A DNA stretch of 64,000 nt, taken from a virus. Within the stretch, counting starts at the first letter, position 1; each line of letters begins with the position of its first letter. This document shows, piece by piece, positions 45,357 through 63,000 of the stretch. The notes under the pieces are model-generated. The model worked only from the letters and a program-made list of their open reading frames with translations. It was not told where the DNA came from and did not search any database. The position numbers and the translations under genes are program-made. Location of the stretch: the IMG/VR virus record IMGVR_UViG_3300010160_000045, positions 3,816 through 67,815 of that record. The stretch is one strand, 5' to 3'.

Positions 45357-45459
45357 TAGTAGTATCGTAGCACTTGCAGGTAACTACCGTATATGCGCCA
45401 ATAGTATCGCATATACAACAAACAGTAAGGAGATAAGCGAATAAAAACACACTAATAAT

Positions 45460-45690
45460 ATGACACAATCGTCAATAAAGCTATCAGACACAATAGCCGA
45501 GATAAGCAAAGACATAGAACTTGCCAACTCAAAGATGAACCAACTCCTTGAAAACGACAAGGGAATCTGCTTCATAATAAAAGGAAATAAAGCAACAGAA
45601 CAAATAGACTTCCGAATGGACAAAACACTATTCGATATGTATTGGAACATAAGAGAGAAAGCATACAATAGATTAAAAGAAATAATATGA
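45460..45690 (+). CDS. Hypothetical protein
   Basis: 76-aa ORF with an A-rich start. Confidence 0.6.
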   Translation: MTQSSIKLSDTIAEISKDIELANSKMNQLLENDKGICFIIKGNKATEQIDFRMDKTLFDMYWNIREKAYNRLKEII

Positions 45691-45727
45691 ATAAGGTCGC
45701 AATCTGCGACTACAAAATAATAAAACT

Positions 45728-45979
45728 ATGGAAAGGACACACAAGTACACATTTGAAATTTACAACGGTAGAGTTAAAGTAAAATACAATGGTTGTGTAA
45801 TGTTCACGTTTAATCAGATTGATTTTCTGGGGTATTACTTTTTTAAGGACGATTCCTCGTTGTATGGTTGTACGTTGTACTTTTCACGAGAGAAAGCAGG
45901 TGCAAGCGAAATGGATGTCTACTTTAAGTCAAAAAAAACTTGGATGGAAGTAAATAAACTGCTTGACGAAAATATGTAA
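45728..45979 (+). CDS. Hypothetical protein
   Basis: 83-aa ORF. Confidence 0.6.
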   Translation: MERTHKYTFEIYNGRVKVKYNGCVMFTFNQIDFLGYYFFKDDSSLYGCTLYFSREKAGASEMDVYFKSKKTWMEVNKLLDENM

Positions 45980-46283
45980 TATGACAATAGACTACACAAT
46001 AGGCGATGACATAGTAGCAATAAAAAGCCACAGCCAAAACACTTACAAAGAAGGCGACGTATTCACCTGCATAGGACTCAAACAATCACCCTGCAAATGC
46101 AAAATGTTCACAGTAGACATAAACATAAGGTCAGCATACAAAGAAATGCTGTGCCTACATTGTAACTACACATTCAAATCTAACAATAACTGGTGGTTCA
46201 ACGCTAACCTATTTCGTAAACTCGACAACCTCGTTCAAATAAACGAAATAAACGAGATACTTAAACAGCCAGCTAAAGTGTAA
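45963..46283 (+). CDS. Hypothetical Cys-containing protein
   Basis: CKC and CxxC motifs. The start is probably ATG 45981. Confidence 0.6.
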   Translation: MTKICNMTIDYTIGDDIVAIKSHSQNTYKEGDVFTCIGLKQSPCKCKMFTVDINIRSAYKEMLCLHCNYTFKSNNNWWFNANLFRKLDNLVQINEINEILKQPAKV

Positions 46284-46372
46284 AACTGCCTTATTAAGAA
46301 TTATTCTAAATAATTTGCATATATCGATATAATTATTTATCCTTGTGCAAACAAATTTATAAATACAATATT

Positions 46373-47062
46373 ATGCAATCAAATGTAGTAATGAAATCGC
46401 CAGACCGCAACTTATTTGGAATAACAATAAGGCAAAACACTAAGGAGCAGTTCTTATCTGTTTCTGATTTGCAAAAGGCATACGAAACAGCAAGATGGCA
46501 ACATGGGTGGAGCGACAGAAAAGTAGCCGACATTCTAAATACTGAAATGACAAGAGAAAGGGTGTTTTCCTTACTGCAAGAGAAGAATCTCATAAAAGCC
46601 GACCGATTGGGTTTTATGGAAATGGTTAATAAAGAGGGGCTTACAAAAGTACTAAAGGGATTAGGGCTTTATAAGACAACAGGCAGAGGAATAAACAAAA
46701 CAGTAATGGCAGACCCTTACATTTGGGTATTGCTTGCTATGGAGTTAAATCCTTTACTGTGGGCTAAAACAATTATATTCATAACTGATACCTTAATATT
46801 TGACCGCATAGAAGCAGGAACAGAATATATGCCAATGAACACAGCTATAAAGTCATTGATAAATAATCCAGATTACGCTAAATACGCTAAAGCAATAAAC
46901 GAAAGAGTATTCGGAAGGCATATAACAGGGGCAAGGCAATTAGCATCATCAGAACAGCTTAAAAAGATAGCATCAATTGAAAGGTTTGTTATTAACGCAA
47001 TAGAAATGAAACTAATTAAAACAGATAACGACCTATTGAACGTAATCAAGAATTATAAATAA
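46373..47062 (+). CDS. KilA-N-like DNA-binding protein
   Basis: 'RNLFGITIRQNTK.QFLSVSDL', 'YKTTGRG.NK.VMADPYIWVLLAMELNP'. Confidence 0.7.
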   Translation: MQSNVVMKSPDRNLFGITIRQNTKEQFLSVSDLQKAYETARWQHGWSDRKVADILNTEMTRERVFSLLQEKNLIKADRLGFMEMVNKEGLTKVLKGLGLYKTTGRGINKTVMADPYIWVLLAMELNPLLWAKTIIFITDTLIFDRIEAGTEYMPMNTAIKSLINNPDYAKYAKAINERVFGRHITGARQLASSEQLKKIASIERFVINAIEMKLIKTDNDLLNVIKNYK

Positions 47063-47569
47063 ATCAGTATATTTGTAGCCAAGAAGAAAATAAAAACATG
47101 ATAACATTAATAAGAAACATAACAAAGGAAGTAAAGACGCAAAGAATAACTGTGCGTGTAGGAAAGGCTAATACAAAGGTAGTATGTTAGTCACGACTAT
47201 AAGAGAGGAGTATAACCGCCCCACATCAGCAAACAGCATCCCCAATCAAAATGACCCCCCAAACATCAAACAGAATTTGAAAACTGAAATCGATTTGCCC
47301 TTCATCCTTTCTCCCTTGCCTATTGTATTGGTTTTAGCTCGTTGTTGCTGCCTATCTTATAACCATCTGTTCCATTGGTAATAAAATCAGCTAAACATTG
47401 CGCTCCTTTGTCCTTTGCCTCAGCAAATTAACATAGCTTTAATCAATTAACCTAAAAAATTATACCTTTTCAAATATGTTCGTCGAAGGATTAATAAAGA
47501 TTTTAAGAAAAAAAGCGGGGTTTTATAAAATTAATCTACACTTTTTGCCCTTTCGTCATTATCCGACAT

Positions 47570-47663
47570 TAAACGTTTACAAACGGATAAAATTAATACA
47601 TTTGCACCTTAAAAGGAGCTATAATAGCCTACTAACCGTTTTTAAACGTTTGTAAACGGATAA
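47570..47663 (+). promoter_or_regulatory. Promoter flanked by two operator-like 21-bp repeats
   Basis: taaacgttt(ac/gt)aaacggataa at 47570-47590 and 47643-47663. TACATTTG at 47597-47604. Confidence 0.55.
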
Positions 47664-47667
47664 TTGA

Positions 47668-48039
47668 ATGCAAACTTACAGAAATTACTCCTATTCATTT
47701 CAAAAGGCTTTATTTTACCCTATTAAAGTAACTTTATTTGAACGTTCTATAAGTTTACCTATGTTGGTAAAGGAATTAAACAAAAAGCCCTTAGGAATCA
47801 ATTATACATTAAGTAGTTTAGATAATTGCTTCAAGGGACAAAATAACGCTTCTATATCTTTACACTATTATTCTAACATATATAACATCCTTTCTTTACC
47901 TCTCCCGACCCCTCAATATTTATATGATAGCTTTCTACGTTGGGAGGAGATTAAACGTTTTAAATTAGACAGGAGGAACGCTAACAGAATCAAAAAAGGT
48001 TTGTTGCCTGTTACCAGTATAAGCACCCGTATTAAATAG
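47668..48039 (+). CDS. Hypothetical basic protein, possibly an HTH regulator
   Basis: 123 aa with its own promoter. 'SLPMLVKEL...YTLSSLDNCFKG' is HTH-like. Confidence 0.5.
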   Translation: MQTYRNYSYSFQKALFYPIKVTLFERSISLPMLVKELNKKPLGINYTLSSLDNCFKGQNNASISLHYYSNIYNILSLPLPTPQYLYDSFLRWEEIKRFKLDRRNANRIKKGLLPVTSISTRIK

Positions 48040-48388
48040 CCGTTTTTTTCGCTTTATACCTTTGCCTTATCTACCTTTTAACCCTTGATTAAATTTTAAT
48101 CATTAGTGTTGATTATTTTATTGTCAATCTCTCAAAACCTCTGGTATCAAGGCTTTCAGCTACATTTTAATAATGTGGCTTTTTTTGTGTCTTTATTTCT
48201 TTGCTTACTTTCTTTTTTAACAGTTTTTTAACACAAATTTTATTGCTTTTTTATATTAATTATAAAAATTATTGTGCTGATTTATAGCACTTTACAACTT
48301 ATTTTAAAAATAAATTTGGTTTGTGTTGTTTATGCTTATATCATTGCATCAACAAATCAAAACAACTACTAACTTTTAAACTTTATAG

Positions 48389-48581
48389 CATGGAAAATTT
48401 AAATAATATCAAATCTACAATAACTTACAAAGGTGTTTGTAATGAAGCCCGCCAAACGTCATACGGCATGCAAACAACTACTTATGTAATTTATAGAAAT
48501 AATTCCTTAATAACATCTTTAATTAAAGAAAAGGGAACTATTTTAACTTCCTTTTACTTAGGCAATGAAATTACAAATTAA
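48389..48581 (+). CDS. Hypothetical early protein
   Basis: Likely start MENLNNIK within track ORF 48321..48581. Confidence 0.45.
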
Positions 48582-48627
48582 TTAATAAATAAAAACAAAT
48601 AATATAAACTTTTTAAAACTTAACAAA

Positions 48628-48870
48628 ATGAAACTAATTAACGACAATTTAAATTTACAAAATTTTGATGCTTGGAGCGGAGCTGTAGACACAAAAGAAA
48701 CTATTTTAAAACATAACAAGGAAAGAGATTTTGAATACTTAATTGAAGAACTTTATCCTGATGGTTTAACCGATACACAATTAAATGATATACTTTGGTT
48801 TGATAGTGAATGGATTTTTGAGAATATAGGAATTGACGAAGAAGAAGAAGAGAACGAAGAAGAAGAGTAA
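48628..48870 (+). CDS. Acidic early protein
   Basis: 'FDAWSGAVDT...TDTQLNDILWFD', very acidic C-terminus. Confidence 0.7.
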   Translation: MKLINDNLNLQNFDAWSGAVDTKETILKHNKERDFEYLIEELYPDGLTDTQLNDILWFDSEWIFENIGIDEEEEENEEEE

Positions 48871-48955
48871 ATTTTTTAAAATTCAAATAACTTAAATAAA
48901 TAATAACAAGGGAGTAAATATTCGCTCCCTTGTAAACTAACTAAACTTTAAAAAA

Positions 48956-49504
48956 ATGAAAACAACTATTGATAACACACAAAGACAATTTTTAATAATC
49001 AATCAAGGCTTTGGCAGTACTAAAAATATTTTCTGCAATCTTCAGAATATACCTTTTATTTTAGCTGAGTACTTTGAGCCAAATGAAGAGTATAAAATTT
49101 ATGAGTATTGGAACAGAAAGCTAAAACAAGTAAGTAAAAAGTTTTTAAAAGAACTTTACAAGGCTAACCAGATTAACCCGCTTAACATTATACAAACTAT
49201 TGACATTAACGCTTATGAATGGTTTGATAAGGTTAACGGAAATAGTTATTTTTCGGCTTCGGTTTGTCTTAACTATGGTTTAAATACCTCTAAAACAATT
49301 ATTTTGCCTTTTCAATATGGTTATGGGGATTTTTATAAACAATCAACTTTTGAAGCACTTATTGAAGCCAATTTAATACACGATGTTAAAAAGTACGAGA
49401 GCGGAGGTAATGAAGGAATTTATAATTTTTGCCAACGTAACAAAATAACACTAAGAACAAGCAAAAAAGAAAATTGTAAAAAAGCAGAGTTAAAAAATAT
49501 TTAA
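48956..49504 (+). CDS. Hypothetical early protein
   Basis: 182 aa, 'WFDKVNGNSYFSA...PFQYGYGD'. Confidence 0.7.
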   Translation: MKTTIDNTQRQFLIINQGFGSTKNIFCNLQNIPFILAEYFEPNEEYKIYEYWNRKLKQVSKKFLKELYKANQINPLNIIQTIDINAYEWFDKVNGNSYFSASVCLNYGLNTSKTIILPFQYGYGDFYKQSTFEALIEANLIHDVKKYESGGNEGIYNFCQRNKITLRTSKKENCKKAELKNI

Positions 49505-49571
49505 ACTAACAATACAAGGGGCGCAGCATCCTAAAAACTGCAAATTACAAACTAACTAAAACTAAAACAAA

Positions 49572-49811
49572 ATGAAAAACTACACTTTAAAAACTTGCGA
49601 AGAATTAATTTATAAATACGTCAATAATTTAGGCGGAGAATGTCTGGAAATAGAAGAAGGCTGTTTGGGGTTAGGCACTATTTTATTACATAGCGCAGAA
49701 GGAAAAAAAGCTATATTAATAAAGGAATTTTTTATAAACGAATGGACAAGTGGACACACAATAAGAACATACAACAATTTACCAAAAAAATACAATAAAC
49801 TAATTGACTAA
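49572..49811 (+). CDS. Hypothetical early protein
   Basis: 79 aa, A/C-rich start context. Confidence 0.7.
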   Translation: MKNYTLKTCEELIYKYVNNLGGECLEIEEGCLGLGTILLHSAEGKKAILIKEFFINEWTSGHTIRTYNNLPKKYNKLID

Positions 49812-49927
49812 TGAAACTACTAATTTTATTTTTAACATTAACATTGTTTGCCTGCGAAACACCTAAAAAATGCAGTGCATACCCTAAGACACCATTAAAA
49901 AATTATTATTCACCTTCACATAACTAA
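49811..49927 (+). CDS. Small putative lipoprotein (38 aa)
   Basis: MKLLILFLTLTLFA-C lipobox-like signal. TAATG coupling with the upstream gene. Confidence 0.5.
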   Translation: MKLLILFLTLTLFACETPKKCSAYPKTPLKNYYSPSHN

Positions 49928-49930
49928 ACT

Positions 49931-50221
49931 ATGAAAACAACATTAAAAAATGCCATCAAATTGGCGCAAGAAATTCAAAAAAAGTATAATGAATTAAACA
50001 ATGATAACGAAGGTTTTTTTGACTTGTATCACGATGATTTATTAATACAAAGTGATTGTGCTTGGCTGGAAGTAGAAGAATTGGAAGAAGACCTTAAAAA
50101 CAAGCAAAAAGAATATGCAGAAATCTCGATGCAAAACTTGAGAGATACATTAGCCTATGTCACGTTTATAATTGACATACAAAACCAGTTAAACAACTGC
50201 CCAAAATCAATTTACGGATAA
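49931..50221 (+). CDS. Hypothetical early protein
   Basis: 96-aa ORF. Confidence 0.65.
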   Translation: MKTTLKNAIKLAQEIQKKYNELNNDNEGFFDLYHDDLLIQSDCAWLEVEELEEDLKNKQKEYAEISMQNLRDTLAYVTFIIDIQNQLNNCPKSIYG

Positions 50222-50247
50222 ATACAAACCAACTAAAAAACAAAACT

Positions 50248-50649
50248 ATGAATACTACAACAAATTTAACAAGCTATTTATTACAATCTGTTACCTGCAG
50301 AATTGAAAAGGATGACTATAATAAAGGATGTTCTAATGAGACATTTCACGATTTTATGATAGGTATAAATACAATTTTTCATTCTAAGGAAGAATTGATT
50401 CAAAGAATGAATGAAGATTTGTTTGGAGCAGAATACAAAGAATCTGATTTTGATTTTGAGCAGTTATTTGATGGGCATAATGTACAGACAGATGTACTTG
50501 TAACATTCAAACCAAACGTAGATTGGCAAGAATTCTATTATCGTACAGATGCTGAATTAAAAAAATGGAAAAAGGGAAATATGGATATGTATAACGCAAG
50601 ATTTTACTTTAGTGTATTGCCAATCCAAGTACTAACCAATAATAACTAA
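50248..50649 (+). CDS. Hypothetical early protein
   Basis: 133-aa ORF. Confidence 0.65.
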   Translation: MNTTTNLTSYLLQSVTCRIEKDDYNKGCSNETFHDFMIGINTIFHSKEELIQRMNEDLFGAEYKESDFDFEQLFDGHNVQTDVLVTFKPNVDWQEFYYRTDAELKKWKKGNMDMYNARFYFSVLPIQVLTNNN

Positions 50650-50653
50650 AACT

Positions 50654-50893
50654 ATGAACACACTAAATCAACTACAAAAAAATGTTTCTTTTTTATTTTC
50701 AAGTTACGGACACAACAAAGTAACTATAATTTTTAGAGGGAAAGAGTACAAATGTATCTCAACAAATACACAGGCAACCGACCGAATTAAAGACGATAAC
50801 GAAGGACTTGACAGAAATAGTTACTACACCACTAAAAAAGAAGCCTATTTAAGCCTATATAATGAAGTTAAGAGGGCAAACAATCTAAAATAA
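50654..50893 (+). CDS. Hypothetical early protein
   Basis: 79-aa ORF. Confidence 0.65.
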   Translation: MNTLNQLQKNVSFLFSSYGHNKVTIIFRGKEYKCISTNTQATDRIKDDNEGLDRNSYYTTKKEAYLSLYNEVKRANNLK

Positions 50894-50899
50894 ATAAAG

Positions 50900-51061
50900 A
50901 TGAAACACACAATACAAACCAACCTAACAAAAGGAGTAAAGATGAGCGAAATATTGCCTTTTTTAAAGATAATAGCGCAGCAGCAAAAATTGGACTTAAC
51001 AAGGTTAACCCAGTTTAACAAAGCTAAAAGATTTTTATTAATATCTATAAACCAAAACTAA
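50900..51061 (+). CDS. Hypothetical protein (53 aa)
   Basis: Gap-filling ORF MKHTIQTNLTK... Confidence 0.5.
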   Translation: MKHTIQTNLTKGVKMSEILPFLKIIAQQQKLDLTRLTQFNKAKRFLLISINQN

Positions 51062-51062
51062 C

Positions 51063-51236
51063 ATGGACACACTAACAGAAATTATTGAAAAGCTAAACGA
51101 ATTAGCTATTGACACGCAACACGATTTAAAGCAAGATTGGAACGAAGAAAAAGAGTTAACCGCTATTCACTTGCAAATGTTATTAATTGCAAAAGCTAAT
51201 TTAGAAATGATTAAACAAACAACTAAAACAAAATAA
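51063..51236 (+). CDS. Hypothetical protein (57 aa)
   Basis: Gap-filling ORF MDTLTEIIEK... Confidence 0.5.
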   Translation: MDTLTEIIEKLNELAIDTQHDLKQDWNEEKELTAIHLQMLLIAKANLEMIKQTTKTK

Positions 51237-51238
51237 CA

Positions 51239-51481
51239 ATGAAAACAAAATCAGGACACGAAGCACAAATCCAACATTGCTATAATGAATATATAAAAGA
51301 AAATTGCAAACAATATAAAGGTTATGAATATGCAATAAGCTGGAATAGTCATATTTTATATATTTATGAAGATGGCGAAGTTATAAAAAGCGCAGAATTG
51401 ACCACGCCTAAATGGACTTTTGATAACTGGGCACAATATTACATACAAGGACTAATAAACAAATCAAACAAAACAAACTAA
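51239..51481 (+). CDS. Hypothetical early protein
   Basis: 80-aa ORF. Confidence 0.65.
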   Translation: MKTKSGHEAQIQHCYNEYIKENCKQYKGYEYAISWNSHILYIYEDGEVIKSAELTTPKWTFDNWAQYYIQGLINKSNKTN

Positions 51482-51483
51482 CA

Positions 51484-52044
51484 ATGAAAACACAAAAACA
51501 AATTTTAAGAGAAAAGGCGCACACATACGGACTTAAAGCCTTAACAGATGCAGAAATATTAAACATATTGAATTATAAAGGAGCTGAGGAAGAATTTTAT
51601 AGTAGTCAGTTTTTTAAAGCAGCAAAGGAAATATTGAGAAGGCAAGAAGTTAAAGAAGTGATAAAGATTAAAAGCAGCGGAGATGCCTATAATATTTTAA
51701 GCCATTTGGAAGGACTAAACCACGAGCAGTTTTGGTGCGTATACCTGAAAAGGAATAACCAAGTAATAAAGGATGAATTTATAAGTAAGGGAGGAATAAC
51801 AGCGACAATAGTAGACACAAAAATAATATTAAAAACAGCTATTAATTTAGATGCGAGCGCAATAGTTTTATGCCACAACCACCCAAGCGGAGAGGCAAGA
51901 CCAAGCAGCGCAGATATAGAGATAACAAACAAGGTTAAAGATGCAGCAAAATTGATGGATATACAAGTGGTTGACCATATAATTATAGGCAACGGGCAAA
52001 ACCTTGTAAAATACTATTCATTTTGCGATGAAGGAATGATTTAA
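51484..52044 (+). CDS. radC: RadC-like JAB domain protein
   Basis: 'EQFW.VYL', 'IVLCHNHPSGEARPSSADI', 'VVDHIIIG'. Confidence 0.9.
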   Translation: MKTQKQILREKAHTYGLKALTDAEILNILNYKGAEEEFYSSQFFKAAKEILRRQEVKEVIKIKSSGDAYNILSHLEGLNHEQFWCVYLKRNNQVIKDEFISKGGITATIVDTKIILKTAINLDASAIVLCHNHPSGEARPSSADIEITNKVKDAAKLMDIQVVDHIIIGNGQNLVKYYSFCDEGMI

Positions 52045-52081
52045 ATAACAACTAATAAACTAAAACTAAACTAACAAGAAG

Positions 52082-52303
52082 ATGGAAGCAAAACCAATTA
52101 AATCAAACGAAATATTAAGAATTGTTTTAAACGATGATAAAATGAGAGAAATGTTTGGGGAGGAATCGAGCAAAAGAAGGTTGACTTTCGGCTCTCAATT
52201 TAACGGAGGCTCAAAGTTAGCAGGAAAGAAAATAGGAGTGCAAAGATTTCACAACGAACAATTAGCAATCGCAAGAAGTGTATATTATCAATTTAATGAT
52301 TAA
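52082..52303 (+). CDS. Hypothetical protein
   Basis: 73-aa ORF. Confidence 0.6.
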   Translation: MEAKPIKSNEILRIVLNDDKMREMFGEESSKRRLTFGSQFNGGSKLAGKKIGVQRFHNEQLAIARSVYYQFND

Positions 52304-52333
52304 TTAACAACTAACAAACTAAAACTAAACACA

Positions 52334-52612
52334 ATGAACACAACACACACACAAGGAAATTGGCACACAAACGATGGGCAAATTTACACCGAAGAAACAG
52401 GCAAAACACTTGCTTTAATACCTTACTTTGATAAGGATAACGAAGAAATGGAAGCAAATAGTAAATTGATAGCAGCAGCGCCAAATTTATTGAAAGCCTT
52501 GCAAAACTTATTGGAGGACGTGCAGTATAGTATTAAAGATATACCATTGGGAGCAATAGGGCAAAGACAAATAAACGCAGCAAAAGAAGCTATAAACAAA
52601 GCAATACTATAA
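52334..52612 (+). CDS. Hypothetical phage protein ('HT.G.W...ANSKLIAAAP.LL' type)
   Basis: Carries a motif common in small phage proteins. Confidence 0.7.
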   Translation: MNTTHTQGNWHTNDGQIYTEETGKTLALIPYFDKDNEEMEANSKLIAAAPNLLKALQNLLEDVQYSIKDIPLGAIGQRQINAAKEAINKAIL

Positions 52613-52616
52613 AACA

Positions 52617-52832
52617 ATGCAAATACAACAAACAATTAACCCAGAAACCGTTTCAATTTACAACAATGGCGAGTACATTGGAGATATAACAAATAGAAAT
52701 ACTTTCTTTGAAGCTATACATAAGAACGGAATGAAAGCAGTTTTTAGCACGTTTGATGCCGCTAAAAAACTATTTGAAGAAGTAGTAAAGCCAAGTACAA
52801 TAAAACAAAACAATCAAATCAATTTATTTTAA
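52617..52832 (+). CDS. Hypothetical protein
   Basis: 71-aa ORF. Confidence 0.6.
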   Translation: MQIQQTINPETVSIYNNGEYIGDITNRNTFFEAIHKNGMKAVFSTFDAAKKLFEEVVKPSTIKQNNQINLF

Positions 52833-52843
52833 TAAATAACAAT

Positions 52844-53203: not shown

Positions 53204-53225
53204 TAATTCTAAAACTAAACTAACT

Positions 53226-53471
53226 ATGAACACAAAAAAATTAATCACCTTATCAACATTTGTATTTTTATTAATCTTTGCACTCCCTTTATTAGTGGGC
53301 AAGATACAACTAAACAACACGCTAATTGTTTGCCAAAACTTAACGGAGAGAACTGATGCAGATATTGAAAGTGTATTGCTGACATTTGGATTTGAAAACA
53401 ACTGGAATCAAGAGCCTACAATCGTAAATATTTGGGAAGTGGGAGCAAACACAATAGCACAAACATTTTAA
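53226..53471 (+). CDS. Hypothetical membrane-anchored protein
   Basis: N-terminal hydrophobic helix. Confidence 0.6.
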   Translation: MNTKKLITLSTFVFLLIFALPLLVGKIQLNNTLIVCQNLTERTDADIESVLLTFGFENNWNQEPTIVNIWEVGANTIAQTF

Positions 53472-53767: not shown

Positions 53768-53770
53768 ACT

Positions 53771-55111: not shown

Positions 55112-55704
55112 GAAAAGAAAGAGTAAAGGGAATGGGACAAAAGGAACTTGTAAACGTAAGGCTTGTAAACATTATATTTAGGGCAGTAATGAACTACTAT
55201 GATGTTACCGAAGAACTTATATGTAGCAATTCAAGAAGGAAGGAACACACCGAGCCGAGACACATTATATGCGCTCTTATATACTCCTTCACGCACAACA
55301 ACCAAACTGTTATTGGGCAGAGGATAGGAGGCAAAGACCACGCAACAATAAACCACTCAATGAAAAATGTAGTGAACTGGTATGAATCAGACAAAGGATT
55401 TAGGGATATGGTCAACAAGATTATGTCCTACATAAACTTTGAATGTAAGCACACCTTTACCTTTCAGCAAGTGTTAGACGTGAAGCAGGGTATAAGAGGA
55501 CTAAAGTATGAGAGGGACACACTTGTTGAGTCATTCAACACAAAGGTGTCAGACCTAATGTATACGGAGGATACACTCGCCATTTTAGACATCGTAAAGC
55601 AACTGAAAATTATTAATGGTGAGATATGGTCAAGGGAAGTACAAAAAGAATTTAAACAACAACTAAAACAAGAAGCAGATGCTGAACAAACGCAATCCAA
55701 TTAA
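55108..55704 (+). CDS. Protein with a DnaA C-terminal (domain IV)-like HTH
   Basis: 'ICSNSRRKEHTEPRHII...IGQRIGGKDHATINHS'. Confidence 0.8.
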   Translation: MRKERVKGMGQKELVNVRLVNIIFRAVMNYYDVTEELICSNSRRKEHTEPRHIICALIYSFTHNNQTVIGQRIGGKDHATINHSMKNVVNWYESDKGFRDMVNKIMSYINFECKHTFTFQQVLDVKQGIRGLKYERDTLVESFNTKVSDLMYTEDTLAILDIVKQLKIINGEIWSREVQKEFKQQLKQEADAEQTQSN

Positions 55705-55788
55705 GAACCAATGGCTGCTGGACATATTCATTATGGCAGTAGTATCTATATTAACTTACATAGTACTAACAAGCAAATAACTAAACCA

Positions 55789-56007
55789 ATGGAATTTACA
55801 AAACAAATTATCAAGTTTACATCTTACACTAACAAGGAGGGGTGGACTATTGATGTAACTAAAGACAACAAGGTGGGAATCTACAATCCCAAGAACGAAC
55901 TTGTACTATTCAAGCAACTTACATTCAACGAGCAGAAGGAAGTGATGCCATTGATTAGGTTTATTGAGGCAGACACTAAACGCAACTTTAAACTAATTGA
56001 GGACTAA
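55789..56007 (+). CDS. Hypothetical protein
   Basis: Likely start MEFTKQ within track ORF 55711..56007. Confidence 0.55.
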   Translation: MEFTKQIIKFTSYTNKEGWTIDVTKDNKVGIYNPKNELVLFKQLTFNEQKEVMPLIRFIEADTKRNFKLIED

Positions 56008-56107
56008 TTTAAAATCATTCTAAATTAACATAAGCATTAGTAAATCAAATACCTATGGCTTATATTTGTGTATTATTAATTATTTATAAACTTTAATCTA
56101 TTAAACA

Positions 56108-56770
56108 ATGGGATTCGGAGAACAAAAAACAAGCGGAAGCACTACTTATGTAAACATAGTAGGCGGAAAATTATCAATCAGAGCCAAGGAAGGCGATGAG
56201 GGTGCAGTAAGCAGAACAAACAAGAACGATGTGGTGGTTTGGGAGAAGCATTACCCCAACCTAACTGGTGCGTTGATTAATGTTGAGTGCAAGATGAATG
56301 AGAAGTTGAAGGCTAACGAGTACATCGTTACTATTGACGATGTGGGAACTACATACAAGCTATCTATTCCTTGTGATTCAAACTACGGAGATAGCTTCAT
56401 AGTGAGGCTGCCTAACTTAAAGCTAAACCAATTATACACGTTCACTCCATTCGACTTTGAGGACAAGGTAAAGAAGAACAAGAAGGGAGAGCCAATGAAG
56501 ATTATCGGTGTGTCTATCAAGCAAGGGGAGGACAAGATTCAACCTTTCTATACAAGAGAAGAGCCGAAGGACAGACCTGTAGGCGAGGAGAATATGGATT
56601 CCGATGACTATAAGGTTTATCAAATCAAACTCCGTAAGTTTTATAGAGGGTTGGTGGAAAAGTTTGCCGATGCAAATGACAAGAACTTTGCAGGGTATGA
56701 GCAGAAGGCAGCACCAAAGAAGCAGAGCAGCAAGAAGGCTCAAGAAGATGATTCAAGTTTACCCTTTTAA
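56108..56770 (+). CDS. Putative single-stranded DNA-binding protein
   Basis: Acidic C-terminal tail 'EDDSSLPF', own promoter TATATTTG at 56061-56068, next to recombination genes. Confidence 0.6.
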   Translation: MGFGEQKTSGSTTYVNIVGGKLSIRAKEGDEGAVSRTNKNDVVVWEKHYPNLTGALINVECKMNEKLKANEYIVTIDDVGTTYKLSIPCDSNYGDSFIVRLPNLKLNQLYTFTPFDFEDKVKKNKKGEPMKIIGVSIKQGEDKIQPFYTREEPKDRPVGEENMDSDDYKVYQIKLRKFYRGLVEKFADANDKNFAGYEQKAAPKKQSSKKAQEDDSSLPF

Positions 56771-56795
56771 TTACTAACAACTAATAACTAACAAT

Positions 56796-57017
56796 ATGAA
56801 AATAGAAACAAAGTACTCCGTAAACGATATGATTTGGTTTTACCTAAACGGAAAGGTAGTAGAAGCACCAATCTACAAGGTTGACATAGGTGTATACGAA
56901 AGCTATACAACCATACAATATATGGTCAATGTTGGCATAATCGGTAATATAAAGTTTGAATCAGTTAAGGAAGAACTTTCCTTTGAAAATAAACAAGAAC
57001 TTATAAAGTCGCTATGA
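56796..57017 (+). CDS. Hypothetical protein
   Basis: 73 aa, 'MKIETKY.VND.IWF'. Confidence 0.65.
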   Translation: MKIETKYSVNDMIWFYLNGKVVEAPIYKVDIGVYESYTTIQYMVNVGIIGNIKFESVKEELSFENKQELIKSL

Positions 57018-57622
57018 TACTGACATTGGAAACATTGTACAATGGAGTAGGATTCATCAAGGAAATAGAAAACCTTGATGAAATCCTTAACTCCGAGCCA
57101 AAGAAAGAATGGCTGAAAACACACGAACAAATAAGCAAGTACAAGTATTTGCCAGTACAAAAGGTTGAATTTCTTCTGCATAGATTGTTTAAAGGAGTTC
57201 ACTTTGAAATAAGGCACTTAATTAAAGACAACGATTGTTCTGTTTCTGTAAGAGTTCACTATGAGGATAGAGAAGGTAAGTTGATGTTCCAAGATGGAAT
57301 AGCATCTTGTCAGATAAACAAACTACAACCAGCGGAAATGGCATTACCAAAAGCTAAGTCAATAGCTATTATAAATGCTGCAAGGTCAATGGGTAGAATA
57401 TTTGGCAGAGATTTAAACAGAAGCGATGAATCGTTATCTATTGTGACAACTCCGATAAGTGATGAGTCTATATTTGAGAAGCACACATTGGGACTACTGC
57501 AATGCGACACCCTGCTTGACATAAAAAACTACTTTGCTTTCAACAAGGTAGGACTAAGCAAGCAAGACGAAGAGAAGTTGAGGTCATTATGCACAAAAAG
57601 AACAATAGAAATCAATGGATAA
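57014..57622 (+). CDS. Rad52/Sak-like ssDNA annealing protein
   Basis: 'YLPVQKVEFLL..LF', 'FQDGIA', 'AKS.AI.NAA..MGRIFGRDLNR', upstream of an exonuclease. Confidence 0.65.
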   Translation: MILTLETLYNGVGFIKEIENLDEILNSEPKKEWLKTHEQISKYKYLPVQKVEFLLHRLFKGVHFEIRHLIKDNDCSVSVRVHYEDREGKLMFQDGIASCQINKLQPAEMALPKAKSIAIINAARSMGRIFGRDLNRSDESLSIVTTPISDESIFEKHTLGLLQCDTLLDIKNYFAFNKVGLSKQDEEKLRSLCTKRTIEING

Positions 57623-58358
57623 CGCAGAAGAAAGAGTTGGCTGCTTTTCAGCAAGCAACATATCCCGACTATTGGCAGGTGGCGGTGGTGCTACAAGAAA
57701 GAGTTACATCCTTGAGGTAGCAACCGAGGTTGTCATAGGCAAGAGACCTCAACTTGACACCGCAGCAATGAAGCACGGCATAGCCAACCAAATGAATGCG
57801 TATGAGTTTGTTCTTAAACCTCTCTACAAGGGAGTGCAATGGGTAGACACCTATATTCCCATCAACAAGAATTGTGGTTCAAGTCCAGACTGCGTGTGGT
57901 TAGGAAACTATCCTATAGACATCAAGTGTCCATTTGAGATTGACACCTACCTTGAGCAAATTGAGAAGGTAAAGCCAAGTTACTTTACCCAAATACAAAT
58001 GCAAATCCTTTCAGTAAAGGGAGAGGAGGGCGCACTATGTACATACCTAACAAAGAAGGAGGAATGGGGAAGCGACACTTGGTCAGAGTATCCCTTACCA
58101 TTGGAGGACAGGTTCAGAGTAGAGCCTATCAAGAAGGATGAGGAAACTTGCGATAGGATTCTATTGGCGGTAGAGAAGGCAGCACCCGAAAGAGATTTGT
58201 ATATTGAACTACTTAACAATGCTACTATGATGGATGAGATTGAGTACTTTTACCATCAGATGAAGCACAACAAGTGCAGAGATATAAAGTCTTGCTCAAA
58301 CCTTGAGAAGGCAAACATCATCAGAGTGAACGATAGATTTTATTACAAAGTAAACTAA
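57615..58358 (+). CDS. YqaJ/lambda-exonuclease-like recombination nuclease
   Basis: 'RVGCFSAS', 'AMKHG', 'GSSPD', 'DIKCP', 'YFTQIQMQ'. Confidence 0.8.
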   Translation: MDNAEERVGCFSASNISRLLAGGGGATRKSYILEVATEVVIGKRPQLDTAAMKHGIANQMNAYEFVLKPLYKGVQWVDTYIPINKNCGSSPDCVWLGNYPIDIKCPFEIDTYLEQIEKVKPSYFTQIQMQILSVKGEEGALCTYLTKKEEWGSDTWSEYPLPLEDRFRVEPIKKDEETCDRILLAVEKAAPERDLYIELLNNATMMDEIEYFYHQMKHNKCRDIKSCSNLEKANIIRVNDRFYYKVN

Positions 58359-58362
58359 CATA

Positions 58363-58433
58363 GACCCCACCCAACAAATAGCTACAATGCGCTACATCTG
58401 CGACACGTTAGCATCATTGGGTTGGGGTTTTTT
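58363..58433 (+). terminator. Terminator-like hairpin upstream of the recombinase
   Basis: accccacccaa...ttgggttggggt followed by a T run. Confidence 0.55.
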
Positions 58434-58447
58434 AAAACTAACTAACA

Positions 58448-59167
58448 ATGAAAAAAGCTAAATTATACGCCCGTGTGTCAACAGACAAGCAAGAAAGCAG
58501 CGTTGACCAACAAATAAAAGAACTGCAAGACTTCTGGGCAAGGTTAAATCTTGATGGCTATGAAGTAGAATATCTTATTGATGAAAATGTTTCGGGAGGA
58601 ACTGAGTTATTTGATAGACCACAAGGCTCAAAATTAAAGGACTTAGAAGCCGATAGCATCGTTATTGCATATAAGAAGGAGCGTTTGTTCCGCAATACAA
58701 TAAACGCACTACAAATCGTTTATAAATGGCTTGACGATGGGGTAACTGTTTACTTTATTGAAAATGGATTAGAGCCTCTAAATTTAAGCAATCCAAACTC
58801 AAAGTTTATATTTACAATACTTTGTGCTAAAGATGAACTTGAAAAGGACACAATCGCTTTAAGGACTAAACTTAATATGAAGTTCCGCAAAGAAAATGGG
58901 CGGACATACTCAGCAGAAGTGTTCGGATATGACAACGTAGGTGAGAGGGGAAGCAATGGAAAGATTATTGATGGTAGGTTAGTCGCCAACGAAGACGAGC
59001 AGCAGGTAATAAAACAAATTTTAGAATGGCACAATATTAACATATCCCTTAATGGTATTGCAAGGAATCTAAACGAAAGGAATACTCCCAGCAAGAAGGG
59101 TAAGAAGTGGTCAGCAAAGACCGTAAGGGATACCATCAAGAACACTATCAATTTAGAGAGAGTATAA
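58448..59167 (+). CDS. Serine recombinase (resolvase-family catalytic domain plus a short recombinase domain)
   Basis: 'LYARVSTDKQ', 'DENVSGG...RP', 'ERLFRN', 'FGYD...IARNLNERNTPSKKGKKWS'. Confidence 0.9.
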   Translation: MKKAKLYARVSTDKQESSVDQQIKELQDFWARLNLDGYEVEYLIDENVSGGTELFDRPQGSKLKDLEADSIVIAYKKERLFRNTINALQIVYKWLDDGVTVYFIENGLEPLNLSNPNSKFIFTILCAKDELEKDTIALRTKLNMKFRKENGRTYSAEVFGYDNVGERGSNGKIIDGRLVANEDEQQVIKQILEWHNINISLNGIARNLNERNTPSKKGKKWSAKTVRDTIKNTINLERV

Positions 59168-59250
59168 ATAAAAAAGATATTGTTGATAATTACATTATTA
59201 TTATATTAATTTGCATAACTAATTTAAACACTATAAAAACAAAAAAAACA

Positions 59251-59616
59251 ATGACAATATTTGAATTTACACTATACACTTTAATGCTTAGTTATAATCC
59301 TTGTGATGTATTTAAACATTTTAATGTAACTGAAATGCACGGTCTTAATTTAGCTGATTGTGAAAAGTACAATAACACTAATGAAGATGCTTATATAGCA
59401 GGTTTGTCTAATGTATCTCCTATTGATGGTAAACCATTTGTGTTTATAAACTTAAGTAGGTGTACTGATGATATAGCAACAACTGGACTAACATTTCATG
59501 AAATGATGCACCTATCTCTTGATTTACATAATAATGATTTATCTAAAGAAGAGGAAATAATTACATGGGCAGAGCTTGAATCTTATAAAGTACTTAAACT
59601 AATTAAAAAACAATAA
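59251..59616 (+). CDS. Small zincin-like (HExxH) protein
   Basis: 'TFHEMMH...EEEII.WAE'. The likely start is ATG 59251. Confidence 0.6.
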   Translation: MTIFEFTLYTLMLSYNPCDVFKHFNVTEMHGLNLADCEKYNNTNEDAYIAGLSNVSPIDGKPFVFINLSRCTDDIATTGLTFHEMMHLSLDLHNNDLSKEEEIITWAELESYKVLKLIKKQ

Positions 59617-59620
59617 CACT

Positions 59621-59812
59621 ATGAAAACAAAAGCATCATTAATCCTTTGGGCAGTTGCAGCCTTATTTATGTCCTTTTGGGCTGTATCATTTGCAATGAC
59701 TGGTGTCAATTTCGGTAATTCCGAATTTATTACCTTTACACTTTCGTTTTGCGCATCACTTGTTAGTGCGGTATGTGGAGCAGGTTTTATGCAGCAATGG
59801 ATGAAAAGATGA
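59621..59812 (+). CDS. Small membrane protein with two transmembrane segments
   Basis: Two hydrophobic segments. Confidence 0.6.
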   Translation: MKTKASLILWAVAALFMSFWAVSFAMTGVNFGNSEFITFTLSFCASLVSAVCGAGFMQQWMKR

Positions 59813-60225
59813 GGTTACTTTGGAATCCAACCAACTTAACCTGCGAGTTTATAGTTCCTAACATTGATAAGTCCGATGGGGTGCAAAAAGTCATAGGCTT
59901 CTCAAGAGGTTGGCATCATTGGAATAGCATTAGGTTAGGTATTCGCAAAGAAAATGACTATTGCGTGTTGTACTTTTATGCTTACATCAAAGGTGAGCGC
60001 ACTATTCAACGGATAGGGAGGTATGAAATCGGTGACCTTGTCAAGTGTGAATTAAATTGGGGCAGTTATATTGAATGCAAAGCTAACGATGGTTACGCTT
60101 TTAGAGTTGCACCAAGACACTCTTTGCCTATTGGCTATCAGTTATATTCTTACGCTGAAAAAGATGGTGTAGAGGGTGTGAAAATAGATATTGATATTGA
60201 GATAAATAATTTAGAAATAATATGA
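59809..60225 (+). CDS. Hypothetical protein
   Basis: 'GFSRGWHHWNSIRLG'. ATGA-coupled start at 59809. Confidence 0.6.
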   Translation: MRLLWNPTNLTCEFIVPNIDKSDGVQKVIGFSRGWHHWNSIRLGIRKENDYCVLYFYAYIKGERTIQRIGRYEIGDLVKCELNWGSYIECKANDGYAFRVAPRHSLPIGYQLYSYAEKDGVEGVKIDIDIEINNLEII

Positions 60226-60488
60226 AAGAAGTAAAATGGTGGAAATTATTAATTGTATTTTTTTCCGCAATAGTTTTAGAAGCAAATAGTATTGCAGGCT
60301 TTAGATTTTTAATGGATAAGCACTGGATGGGTATGGTTATGATGGCAGCAATTAATCCCTTTTTATGCTTGCCGATGAACCATTACACTATTGAAGTTAA
60401 GACATTCAAAGGAAGGTCAATTATTGCTTTAGCATTTAGTACAGGATTTGTAGTAGGAATATTAACAATAAGACCTTTTTTTATATGA
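60222..60488 (+). CDS. Membrane protein with three transmembrane segments
   Basis: Hydrophobic, 88 aa. Confidence 0.6.
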   Translation: MKEVKWWKLLIVFFSAIVLEANSIAGFRFLMDKHWMGMVMMAAINPFLCLPMNHYTIEVKTFKGRSIIALAFSTGFVVGILTIRPFFI

Positions 60489-60688
60489 AACAAACAGCAG
60501 TTGAATGGTTAGTTGAGCAACTTGCTCCATCTGTATCTTTACAACAAAAGTACATTGATGAATTACTTGAACAAGCCAAAGCAATGGAAAAAGAGCAGTT
60601 AATAGATGCTTTTGATGAAGGAAATCCAAATGGGTTTATCATTAAAGATGGTGAACAATACTACAACGAAACATTTAAACAAGATTAA
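60485..60688 (+). CDS. Hypothetical protein (MKQTAVEWL...EQAKAMEKEQ type)
   Basis: Paralogous to the N-terminus of 61134..62072. Confidence 0.7.
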   Translation: MKQTAVEWLVEQLAPSVSLQQKYIDELLEQAKAMEKEQLIDAFDEGNPNGFIIKDGEQYYNETFKQD

Positions 60689-60914
60689 TATGAAAAAAGA
60701 AACACTCGAAGAAAGAGCAGCTAGATATGATAATATAAAATTGCCAATACCTTATGGTTATGTTGGTGCGGCAAATGATTTTATTAATGGTGCTAAATGG
60801 CAACAAGAACAAATACTACAATTTCTTTATTCAGAAATAACTGAACGTAGACCTTACTCATCATCTAAAATGTGTGAAGAAGTAATTAAATTTATTGAAC
60901 AATTTAAAAAATAA
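60689..60914 (+). CDS. Hypothetical protein ('ETLEE.A...FINGAKWQQE' type)
   Basis: Likely start MKKETLEE within track ORF 60606..60914. The start coordinate is approximate. Confidence 0.55.
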
Positions 60915-60918
60915 TAAT

Positions 60919-61137
60919 ATGACACCAAAAGAAAAATCAGAAGAATTAGTATTAAAATTTTTAAGAATAGAAAATAATACTCCAGAATGGTTTAATACGC
61001 ATATTGCCAAACAATGTGCATTAATTGCAGTTCAAGAAATAATTAACGCAAATCCGCATAGCAATCCATTAACAACTGAAGTTTATTCAACTATGTTATT
61101 TTGGCAAGAAGTTAAAACCGAAATAAACAAACTATGA
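60919..61137 (+). CDS. Hypothetical protein ('MTPKEK..EL...AKQCALIAV.EI' type)
   Basis: Likely start MTPKEK within track ORF 60895..61137. Confidence 0.65.
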   Translation: MTPKEKSEELVLKFLRIENNTPEWFNTHIAKQCALIAVQEIINANPHSNPLTTEVYSTMLFWQEVKTEINKL

Positions 61138-62072
61138 AACAATTAACAGCAGTTGAATATTTGATTAGTGAATTGATGAAATCAAAACATTATCAGCAAA
61201 TGATTAACGAAGTACATCAAAATAGTACAGTAGCAATAGATGTTATTGAACAAGCCAAAGCAATGGAAAAGGAGCAGATGGATAAAGCATTTGATAGTGG
61301 TAGAAATGAGGAAATAAATAAAGGAAGTAAAATATGTTATAAAGTATATGGACTTTATGTTGATGGGCAAGAATTAATTAGGTATATTGGATTTACTAAA
61401 AACAAAATACAAACAAGGCTTAATGAACATACTTCTGAAAGCAAATACTTAAAAACAAAAAAAGATAGATGGATTCAAAAGTATTTAAGAAATGAAAAGC
61501 AAATATGTGCAATAGAACTGGATTCTACATTTGATTTTGAAGAAGTAAAGAAAAAAGAAATTAATTTAATTGCTATGTATAAATCTTGCGGTGCTAATTT
61601 AATGAATGGCACTAATGGAGGTGATGGCTCTATTAATTTTAGACATACGGAAGAAAACAAAATAACTAATGGAATTAGAAAATCAAAAAAGGTTTATTGT
61701 TTTGATTTTAAAACAAAAGAATTAATTGCAGAGTATCCTTCAATAACAAAAATGATAAAAGAATTAAAATTAAGCAAAACATTGGTGGCAAAAGTTTTAA
61801 ATGGTTCAAGTAATTTCCATAAAGATTTTACTTTTTCAAAAGATGGCATTTGCCCTACTCCTTTTACTCCAAAGCATACTGCTTGGAACAAAGGAATATC
61901 AACAAAAGGAACTCAAAGATTTAGATTTACTGAAACTAAATTAGAAAAAGATGGAGAAATTCTTACATTTGAATCTGTAAGTGATGCTTCAAAATTTTTA
62001 GGGAAAAATCATACTTTTGTGATTAAAAAAAGAAAATTAAATCAACCAATAAACGGATATAAAATAATATGA
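61134..62072 (+). CDS. GIY-YIG homing endonuclease fused to a phage small-protein domain
   Basis: 'KVYGL...IRYIGFT...RLNEH', 'E.NLIA.YK..GANL.N.T.GGDG', and NUMOD-like 'KVYCFD...IAEYPSI' and 'FESVSDASKFLG'. Confidence 0.85.
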   Translation: MKQLTAVEYLISELMKSKHYQQMINEVHQNSTVAIDVIEQAKAMEKEQMDKAFDSGRNEEINKGSKICYKVYGLYVDGQELIRYIGFTKNKIQTRLNEHTSESKYLKTKKDRWIQKYLRNEKQICAIELDSTFDFEEVKKKEINLIAMYKSCGANLMNGTNGGDGSINFRHTEENKITNGIRKSKKVYCFDFKTKELIAEYPSITKMIKELKLSKTLVAKVLNGSSNFHKDFTFSKDGICPTPFTPKHTAWNKGISTKGTQRFRFTETKLEKDGEILTFESVSDASKFLGKNHTFVIKKRKLNQPINGYKII

Positions 62073-62500
62073 AATCAGCAATAATAACCCGAATACCACA
62101 AGACAAACAAACGCTGGGCAAGTGGATTAGTTACGAAAATGGCAATGTAATATTTGCTTGTGACACTATCGAACTACCTTATAAGAACAATGCGCCTCAA
62201 ATCAGTTGCATACCAAAGGGTGTTTATGATGTTGTATATCGTGAATCAAAGAAGTACCCAAGACACTACCACATTTTAGATGTCCCAAATCGTGACTTTA
62301 TTTTAGTGCATCAGGCGAACTTTGTAGGCAGTCCTAACCCAAAGACACGCAAACCAGATTTGCTTGGCTGTATTGGTGTAGGAAATGGCTATGGTGACAT
62401 CAATGGAGATGGGATAGTTGAACTGCTAAGGTCAACACCGACATTAAAACGATTGCTGGAGGTTATGGGCAAAGAATCTTTTACACTTACCATAATATGA
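62069..62500 (+). CDS. DUF5675-family putative endolysin
   Basis: 'TLG...CDTIELPYKNN....SCIPKGVY...VPNRDFILVHQAN...GCIGVG', upstream of holin- and spanin-like genes. Confidence 0.75.
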   Translation: MKSAIITRIPQDKQTLGKWISYENGNVIFACDTIELPYKNNAPQISCIPKGVYDVVYRESKKYPRHYHILDVPNRDFILVHQANFVGSPNPKTRKPDLLGCIGVGNGYGDINGDGIVELLRSTPTLKRLLEVMGKESFTLTII

Positions 62501-62682
62501 CACGAAACACACGCTACACGAATGGCAAGGAGGTAATTACTTTCAGCAAGATTGATTTTATAGTTATCGGAGGTCGCAAGATTGACCATGTTTATTTTAG
62601 AAGAAAGGACAAACACGATTTGATAATGCCTTTGGTCGAATGGAATTTAAAAGGTAAATTTGAGTGGGAAATAATTAATTAA
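62497..62682 (+). CDS. Hypothetical protein
   Basis: 61 aa, ATGA-coupled. Confidence 0.55.
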   Translation: MTRNTRYTNGKEVITFSKIDFIVIGGRKIDHVYFRRKDKHDLIMPLVEWNLKGKFEWEIIN

Positions 62683-63000
62683 CGTTCCGATTATTTGCGT
62701 TCGGTGGGGCGTTACACCGCCAAAGATTGTTTAACAAACTAAAGTTCAAAATATGCACACAGATTCAAAAAATCATGAAACCCCCACTGACGCAAATAAT
62801 GTGTTAGTGGCTGGCATTTGTCGGCACTTTAAACATCAAGTTGCGGAGAGGGAATTTTATGTGAACCAAAAAAAGCCATATAGCGGAACAAGAATTATAT
62901 GTTTAAAATGCGGTAAAAACAAGTTTATAAAAGATGCTGAGTATGGTGTCTATGCTTGCCGCTAACTACCTTATATGCGCTACATTTACACGCTTATACA
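62680..63000 (+). mobile_element. Single integron-like cassette with a long attC-like site
   Basis: TAAC 62680, stem 62690-62709/62782-62800, GTTA 62803. Cassette ends gttagtggctggcat and atgcttgccgctaac are inverted repeats. The terminal site matches 45381-45416. Confidence 0.6.
62753..62965 (+). CDS. Small Zn-finger-like cassette protein
   Basis: C-x-H...CxxC. The N-terminus 'ETPTDANNVLVAG' is encoded by the hairpin arm. Confidence 0.6.
   Translation: MHTDSKNHETPTDANNVLVAGICRHFKHQVAEREFYVNQKKPYSGTRIICLKCGKNKFIKDAEYGVYACR

Follow-up and report, generated by a model that had tools for sequence, protein, structure and literature searches.

The stretch of DNA analysed here (the window, 64,000 nt) covers positions 3,816 to 67,815 of the IMG/VR virus record IMGVR_UViG_3300010160_000045 and is part of an uncultured phage from freshwater metagenomes. 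Its structural genes are on the - strand up to about 37.6 kb, and replication genes together with many small genes follow on the + strand from 38 kb. Within this second part, two groups of accessory genes end in nearly identical short elements, terminal site B (45381-45417, + strand) and terminal site D (62963-63000, + strand). Judged from sequence comparisons, both loci are real variable cassette loci, integron-like and without an integrase, which end in the same conserved element, and B and D are two copies of a lineage-specific, sequence-conserved array-end box. We read them, at somewhat less than an even chance, as putative attI-like recipient terminal half-sites.

Site B reads TAAC-TACC-GTATATGCG-loop-CGCATATAC, preceded by TTG-N4 at 45374-45380, and site D reads TAAC-TACC-TTATATGCG-loop-CGCTTATAC, preceded by TTG-N4 at 62956-62962. 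The TAA of D is the stop codon of the cassette gene 62753-62965. A search of the window with TAACTACCNTATATGCG, allowing up to two mismatches, gave exactly two matches, with starts at 45381 and 62963, both on the + strand. Shuffled sequences yielded a chance expectation of 0.02, none of 100 shuffles reached two matches, and the entire 67.8-kb virus record holds no third copy. An earlier note on this DNA had described two near-identical sites 17.6 kb apart, each forming a small hairpin and lacking the closing GTT. Both strings are present, with starts 17,582 nt apart, and D has the coordinates given in that note, but B has 37 letters and ends at 45417, not at 45416. Direct reading of the sequence found no GTTA after B or D, and no GTTAY lies within 90 nt in any of the 22 copies of the box family described below, so that the lack of a closing GTT was confirmed. 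The hairpin claim held better for one of the two sites than for the other. The inverted repeat of B (GTATATGCG / CGCATATAC) is perfect over 9 bp around a loop of 10 nt, and as RNA it folds with -12.8 kcal/mol (z -1.65; 13 of 200 shuffles as stable), whereas D reaches -3.7 kcal/mol (z +0.19; 97 of 200 shuffles as stable). By these values, "small hairpin" is a fair description of B and a weak one of D.

The insert at locus 1 is 1.54 kb long and starts directly after the stop codon TAA of gene 43580-43840. It begins with inter-cassette site 1 (43838-43914, + strand), which consists of TAAT, a long imperfect hairpin, and GCT-GTTAT (-31.3 kcal/mol). Next comes MT1 (43964-44512, + strand), a cassette DNA methyltransferase gene that matches PHROG 799 (E 2e-31) and, weakly, the Pfam family EcoRI_methylase. 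Inner site A (44522-44570, + strand) reads TAAC-GTATGG-stem-TCGTTTTAATG-stem'-TGT-GTTAC and forms an attC-like hairpin between the two cassettes (RNA fold -18.3 kcal/mol, z -3.43). The MT2 cassette (44566-45384, + strand) is composed of the 5' end GTTACCTGC, a 74-nt leader, gene 44640-45356 for a Dam-type methyltransferase (PF02086 match), and a 28-nt tail with the 3' end GTAGCACTTGCAGGTAAC; its ends are inverted repeats of each other (GTTACCTGC / GCAGGTAAC). After B the phage backbone continues with a gene of 76 aa (45460-45690, + strand), which has no family match, starts 79 nt past the TAAC of B, and is 91% identical in L015 (L, G, and X numbers are our handles for compared records and contigs). 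Upstream of the locus lies an HNH endonuclease gene (42408-43130). Site 43838-43914 shares its loop, with different stems, with sites located 5' of other methyltransferase genes in L072, L020, and L011. As an aside, such hairpins with a AGCGTTGGCATTGTGCG-like loop (window 43838-43914; L072 1474-1555; L020 564-631; L011 about 8873-8990) precede methyltransferase genes of at least three families, and they could act as cis-regulatory RNA as well as cassette sites.

Each cassette is bounded by inverted GTTAC...GTAAC ends, and between cassettes lie TAAC...GTTAY hairpins with covarying stems. The flanks and the 11-nt loop TCGTTTTAATG of site A are common to sites in L072, L011, L080, and L062, and the five sites have five different stems: nine of ten pairs are changed on both sides, 96% of the cells are paired, and none of 500 shuffles match this. 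Site A and its relatives therefore have what defines a site between cassettes, namely, an AAC core on the 5' side, a GTT core on the 3' side, and a structure that is kept although the sequence varies. The flanking letters of the TAAC/GTTAY sites differ from the attC flank consensus RYYYAAC / GTTRRRY. In B and D, a closing GTT core that could pair with AAC is lacking altogether.

MT2 is one and the same unit in different contexts with breakpoints at the core, as is characteristic of a cassette. Five IMG/VR records (L072, L073, L076, L078, and L080) contain the unit with matching non-coding ends, and the homology starts at GTTAC and stops right after TAAC. The proteins are 53-58% identical to the window copy, yet the non-coding ends (window 44566-44639 and 45357-45384) are near-identical. 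Because the flanks are better conserved than the gene, they are either under stronger constraint or repeatedly homogenised by recombination. When whole records were compared, MT2 was the sole protein common to the window phage and each of four of these records. In three of the five foreign contexts a box-like sequence (TAACTACTTTATTTACGCAACAA, TAACTCCCAAATACACGC, and TAACTCGTATAT) lies 3' of GCAGGTAAC, and L072, L073, and L076 hold only degenerate box versions. A full TAAC...GTTAT site comes next in the fourth context, and in the fifth, L078, the 3' end of the cassette was not found. The presence of the MT2 cassette in five otherwise unrelated genomes points to a route by which phages of one habitat exchange methyltransferases, which are a main counter to restriction. 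A link of the box to the methyltransferase gene itself was considered and rejected, as none of 80 loci with MT2 homologues had a box match better than 18.9 bits.

The comparison of alleles places the box at the 3' junction between accessory cassettes and conserved phage backbone, and it shows that TAA|C of the box is the exact point at which cassettes enter, leave, or are replaced. The earlier note had asked what lies at empty sites, and the two loci gave different answers. At locus 1, L015, the flanks of which are 82-96% identical, joins window 43841 to 45381. It lacks 43842-45380 and thus both methyltransferases, and at the junction the stop codon TAA is followed by TTACCCATATGCGCC and the rest of the hairpin, so that the box is kept in the empty allele. 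In X3 contigs from another metagenome, homology to the window stops after 43840, where a related but non-identical leader begins; these contigs carry a different insert and rejoin the window homology exactly at 45381, with GGTAGCATTGGTTA directly 5'.

Locus 2 contains a single cassette. It is opened by site C (62680-62715, + strand), a TAACG...CGTTAC mini-site, the TAA of which is the stop codon of gene 62497-62682 and the 5' part of which resembles cassette leaders of locus 1, X3, L011, and L048. The cassette gene (62753-62965, + strand) encodes 70 aa; it has no family match, and no homologue was present among the other loci compared. Downstream of D follows a backbone gene (63016-63270, + strand) for a predicted membrane protein of 84 aa without family match, which is 87-92% identical in about 25 loci. 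Upstream of the locus are a NUMOD1/I-HmuI-like endonuclease gene (61134-62072), a DUF5675 gene, and small open reading frames (ORFs). Loci with both flanking genes, 62497-62682 and 63016-63270, fell into 15 distinct variants including the window. Twelve of them are filled with unrelated inserts of 0.18-1.8 kb, and in six of these twelve the insert ends in the box (window, L048, L057, and the L021, L020, and L029 types). In the three empty variants (L030, L031, and L037) the genes are separated by 19-22 nt. An X1 contig joins 62680 to 63000, i.e., site C, the 70-aa gene, and hairpin D are gone and the CAACAAC leader is kept. Its short side comprises only 28 nt, which makes it weak evidence, and the same junction was not found among the other compared loci.

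The earlier note had named uniqueness to this genome as a refutation of its idea. The box is not restricted to this genome; it recurs in related and in unrelated phage records. A 17-mer from the motif was present in 12 IMG/VR stretches, of which three (L004, L011, and L013) stay similar to the window beyond it and nine look like chance matches, and a longer pattern, TAACTAMCNNNTATGCGCTAC, was present in 19 stretches, 17 of them family members. A covariance model built from nine copies gave 19 matches with E <= 3e-6 across 24 sources, 18 of them distinct; B scored 70.3 bits and D 65.1 bits. Nothing scored above 18.9 bits in a control of 486 kb from 80 unrelated methyltransferase loci. The 22 copies examined, from the window and IMG/VR phage records, are the model matches plus three copies in the record G001. 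The consensus is TTR-N4-TAAC-TA(C/A)C-N1-2-(T)ATATGCGC-YA, then a loop, then CGC(A/T)TAT(A/C)CAACAA, for which TAACTACC box or TAACTNCC box can serve as short names. It is the left box, some 25 nt long, that is conserved. As a rule it is followed by the inverted arm CGCWTATAC and a leader rich in A and C, and the family has members with and without the inverted repeat. The box is always oriented along the gene direction, i.e., it lies on the coding strand, and the sequence upstream of it differs in nearly every copy. In eight of the 22 copies an ORF of at least 44 codons ends with the TAA of the box. Downstream, gene 63016 follows in eight records, a small lipoprotein-like ORF and then a homing endonuclease gene in seven, gene 45460 in the window and L015, and other genes in L011, L032, and L055.

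Two further candidates for the nature of the box were dismissed. A 14-codon mini-ORF starting within D shares the reading frame of the next gene in some of the copies; in others it has a different frame or meets a stop after three codons, and it is therefore rejected as coding. TAAC is not a general stop context either, because this ending is found in eight of 63 + strand genes, roughly the number expected from base composition. The box is not a host site either. A search for dif- or attB-like sites with GCTAACTACCNTATATGCG, an 18-base version of the motif, gave one match in representative genomes of 185,579 species, and this match is inside a coding region and has no further similarity.

The genes around the box could suggest that it is the target or a by-product of free-standing homing endonucleases nearby, namely, of the HNH gene 42408-43130 and the NUMOD1/I-HmuI-like gene 61134-62072. 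Each locus lies 0.9-2.3 kb downstream of such a gene, and in seven records a D-type box precedes the gene homologous to the second endonuclease by about 140 nt. This position is not constant, since the box is upstream of the endonuclease in L013 and downstream in the window, and the boxes of G001, G002, and L011 have no such endonuclease beside them. In addition, the TAAC/GTTAY cassette-site system, of which the box is a part, is widespread without these endonucleases. A role as target or by-product of homing is highly improbable.

B and D could also be decayed remnants, i.e., left halves of former TAAC...GTTAY sites that lost the closing half through deletion of the neighbouring cassette and are now functionless and shared by descent or transfer. 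The mismatched and thermodynamically marginal stem of D, the loss of the right arm in several copies, and the degenerate versions in L072, L073, and L076 would fit such a decay. A parallel is copy b of G001, where the box is the 5' half of a complete site, with the distal arm TATACGGT and then GTTAC at about +190 nt. The conservation of the box argues against decay. In all six contigs in which both could be measured, identity to the window is 90.7-95.3% for the 43-nt element and 85.9-87.0% for the adjacent gene. A 43-nt stretch identical to D occurs in L013 in a different genomic context, and identical or near-identical copies are found in at least three contexts with unrelated flanks. The left box has even been kept in G001, which has no protein in common with the window phage and carries three box copies. 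Taken together, we regard decay as improbable.

The same conservation would be compatible with an expression signal. One possibility is a regulatory linker comparable to the PeSLs (promoter early stem-loops), i.e., a cis-acting expression signal that closes each inserted unit, for instance an RNA hairpin, a site for processing or stability, or a leader for translation initiation; its repeated copies would let genes be shuffled by homologous or microhomology recombination without a dedicated enzyme. The box lies on the coding strand, with an ORF start 41-89 nt downstream in 17 of 22 copies, the entire box including the loop is conserved above the neighbouring gene, no recombinase is tied to it, and other indels of this phage use microhomology only. 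For PeSLs, the accessible text of two reports provides a precedent for regulatory cassettes that mediate modular shuffling (PMC2839356; PMC4122927). Inner-site hairpins are stabler on the sense strand, through G.U-type pairs, in 23 versus 4 cases, a count that is biased because the sites were selected on sense-strand energy. A second possibility is a promoter or operator for the downstream genes, with a phage or host factor binding the 25-nt box and the inverted repeat. The box is indeed an asymmetric motif of conserved sequence and fixed orientation, it lies upstream of conserved genes, and most related records have one D-type copy in front of the small lipoprotein gene or of gene 63016.

Several results speak against both possibilities. 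No sigma-70-type promoter and no terminator of a hairpin plus T-run overlaps B or D, and neither is followed by a U-tract, so that the strong host-type promoter and stem-loop terminator that define a PeSL are lacking at both sites. The promoter consensus of Bacteroidota is TTG, a spacer of about 19-21 nt, and TAnnTTTG (-33/-7). It fits neither site, as TAnnTTTG is missing from B and the spacer in D would have to be 22 nt long. The alleles of locus 2 without box keep gene 63016, which is taken to be expressed there; if so, the box would not be needed for its expression. With regard to a linker, the hairpin of D is at the level of shuffles, and over the 18 distinct copies the stem of the box shows no covariation: none of nine pairs is changed on both sides, 71.3% of the cells are paired compared to 71.8% in shuffles, and one position is unpaired in eight of 17 copies. 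Scans of the whole window yielded no Rfam match at gathering score and no tRNA or tmRNA gene, and the breakpoints are exact at TAAC in unrelated genomes. With regard to an operator, the loop spacing varies from 10 to 11 nt, the right arm is dispensable, and copies a and c of G001 point towards the 3' end of a gene of opposite orientation and have no gene downstream on their own strand. A linker thus seems unlikely, though far from negligible, and a promoter or operator very improbable. The idea of an early promoter like that of crAss-like phages was dropped, because the early transcripts of phi14:2 give no motif with which the box could be compared; in the available part of the phi14:2 preprint they are without a common upstream motif.

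An attI site is the double-stranded, sequence-specific recipient site beside intI, it has one GTTRRRY core, and cassettes insert there. The box shares with attI that there is one conserved, sequence-defined site per array, which is located at the junction between array and backbone, and that cassettes enter and leave at a fixed core, in contrast to the structure-defined sites between cassettes. Conservation of sequence in the box and of structure in the inner sites therefore parallels the pair of attI and attC. By its sequence, the box looks like the 5' half (R''-L''-like) of an inner hairpin site without the closing GTTAY. Its role would be that of a terminal half-site at which the array receives cassettes by recombination. 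They would be inserted 5' of it by a trans-acting recombinase encoded off this record or through short-homology recombination at the shared TAAC box. Insertion on the 5' side would leave the box always last in the row. A sequence-defined end site would be a natural recipient; it could serve as the substrate in recombination assays and guide the search for the missing enzyme. The more specific version, in which the TAACTACC box is the attI counterpart of a phage-borne, integrase-less system and the trans recombinase is supplied by the host or by a temperate phage that co-infects it, such as G001, is possible but doubtful. If it is true, freshwater Bacteroidota phages could trade anti-restriction methyltransferases and other accessory genes via the box.

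There are also clear differences to attI. The box is at the 3' end of the row and not at the 5' end, its core is TAAC on the coding strand, and no promoter was detectable. In the window record no intI-type tyrosine recombinase lies beside the array, nor is there a 5' attI next to intI with a cassette promoter; the box is 3' of the array and no promoter overlaps it. Only in G001, among the 11 records G000-G010, were tyrosine recombinase genes found, and there they are convergent with the box: copies a and c are 75-180 nt from the 3' ends of such genes, at positions where two alleles with different small genes become alike again. The two ends of G001 (a 53.7-kb record; L064 1-4000 and L066 9400-13720) are diverged copies of one locus with a helix-turn-helix gene, small genes, the box, and a tyrosine recombinase. 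This looks like a wrap-around assembly of two strains, so that the two recombinases of G001 may be allelic forms of a single gene. When close relatives of the G001 recombinase were searched for, nothing but the protein itself was recovered, and ordinary terminators were found beside its foreign relatives. The only recombinase of the window is a serine recombinase (58448-59167). Its gene is split (58448-59167 and 59107-59616), with a Resolvase domain and the start of a Recombinase domain followed by an overlapping ORF of 169 aa, and L030 lacks window 59181-59619.

A considerable number of observations weigh against an attI-like half-site. The recombinase searches were largely negative: PF00589 was found in none of the ten records searched (G000, G002-G010), two of which are estimated to be complete and one to 90%, while the same search found it in 14 of 14 known genomes; PF00239 was found in one of five records, G000; and a profile search for relatives of the G001 recombinases gave 15 loci, of which 13 are foreign and none of these 13 has the box. 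The box itself is variable in parts. The inverted repeat of D has 8 bp including an internal T.T mismatch, and the right arm is missing in five of 19 aligned matches (L011 twice, L029, L051, and L032) as well as in L055 and the G001 copies. Copy b of G001 is internal and is closed by the distal GTTAC. At locus 2, six of the 12 inserts are without box (the L022 type, L024, L025, L026, L062, and the L050 type), and the box comes in together with the insert and is lacking in all three empty alleles, a pattern unexpected for a resident docking site and unlike attI. Circular cassettes or recombination products were not seen in the assembled contigs. At other gene indels that distinguish the window from L015, the only homology is microhomology at start or stop codons, so that general illegitimate recombination also acts in this phage. 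Lastly, the array of Polaribacter phage P12002L ends in GGTAAC followed by ordinary sequence, without the TAACTACC box.

The more far-reaching proposals of the earlier note were borne out in part. Its dedicated array-end element exists as a conserved array-terminal half-site, which ends arrays often but not always, as P12002L, the six locus-2 inserts without box, and the internal copy b of G001 show. An attI equivalent is favoured by the sequence conservation and by the box that stays in the empty locus 1 of L015, but a linked recombinase is missing. The alternative proposal, the end of a non-autonomous carrier that seeds arrays, agrees with locus 2, where the box comes with the insert and L030, L031, and L037 are without it; at locus 1 the box is resident.

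Integron-like rows in virulent phages have been noticed only recently, and most such phages encode no integrase. Qi (2023; Front Microbiol 14:1091391, PMC9892861) describes 17 CALINs (clusters of attC sites lacking integron-integrases) in virulent phages including P12002L, which has two methyltransferases, and reports that one P12002L site was recombined by IntI1. The P12002L CALIN resembles the arrays of the window in its small genes of the same direction, typically DNA methyltransferases, its location in a virulent-type Bacteroidota phage with a genome without integrase, and the imperfect palindromes between genes that start with TAAC and end with GTTA. We also read the P12002L locus directly; it has TAACG...hairpin...GTTAC sites and TTG-N4-TAAC cassette ends as in the window, and the start of its methyltransferase gene is 77.6% identical to MT2 over 172 nt. 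The array type is therefore already published, and the terminal box is the added element. No description of a conserved terminal site or box was found in the literature searched, including the consulted passages of Qi (2023), the array-boundary tables of which may bear on it.

Two further systems show partial similarities. The PeSLs of T4-type phages, according to the accessible text of Arbiol (2010; PMC2839356) and Comeau (2014; PMC4122927), comprise a sigma-70-like promoter and an effective terminator and are exchanged by homologous recombination. As described there, they are short conserved intergenic stem-loop motifs that flank non-essential genes in variable regions, and they are points of insertion, deletion, and replacement between close relatives, as is the box. 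In contrast to them, the box has no detectable promoter or terminator, and it belongs to a TAAC/GTTAY palindrome system with breakpoints at a core of 4-5 nt. In Bacteroides, i.e., in the same phylum, repeats of the type GTTAC-N7-GTAAC with a site-specific recombinase nearby drive promoter inversion in invertible regions, as the consulted part of Taketani (2015; mBio, PMC4611039) describes. The words GTTAC and GTAAC are thus recombination-associated inverted repeats in both cases. However, the two words are separated by 7 nt in those repeats. In the present arrays they either enclose a hairpin, at a distance of 40-190 nt, or form the two cassette ends, and the terminal box has the TAAC word only.

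Some observations concern other parts of the phage. G002 and G003 (30-34 kb, rated 100% and 90% complete) have only the genes of window 59621-60225 and 62497-63874 in common with it, which are small accessory and membrane-protein genes. The right end of the window is therefore a module that moves between unrelated phages. Homologues of the last genes of the window adjoin in G003 a homologue of the first 1.2 kb of the record, a gene order that hints that the record is close to a circular permutation. In four freshwater metagenomes the summed contig depth is 3- to 10-fold higher at 48837-49503, 59509-60842, and 62844-63500 than elsewhere, and the genes of these stretches are probably shared by many co-occurring phages. 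L015 3453-4513 contains about 1.06 kb that is absent from the window and is located inside the terminase large subunit gene (32819-34873, - strand; near 34430); possible explanations are an intron, an intein, or the insertion of a homing endonuclease. The structural module includes three giant ORFs on the - strand (1149-9785, 10274-15289, and 18392-22921; 2878, 1671, and 1509 aa), which gave no PHROG match at 1e-5 and whose arrangement is reminiscent of crAss-like phages with virion RNA polymerase proteins. Two adjacent structural genes are spanned by a direct repeat of 300 nt (17165-17464 and 17840-18139; 79% identity).

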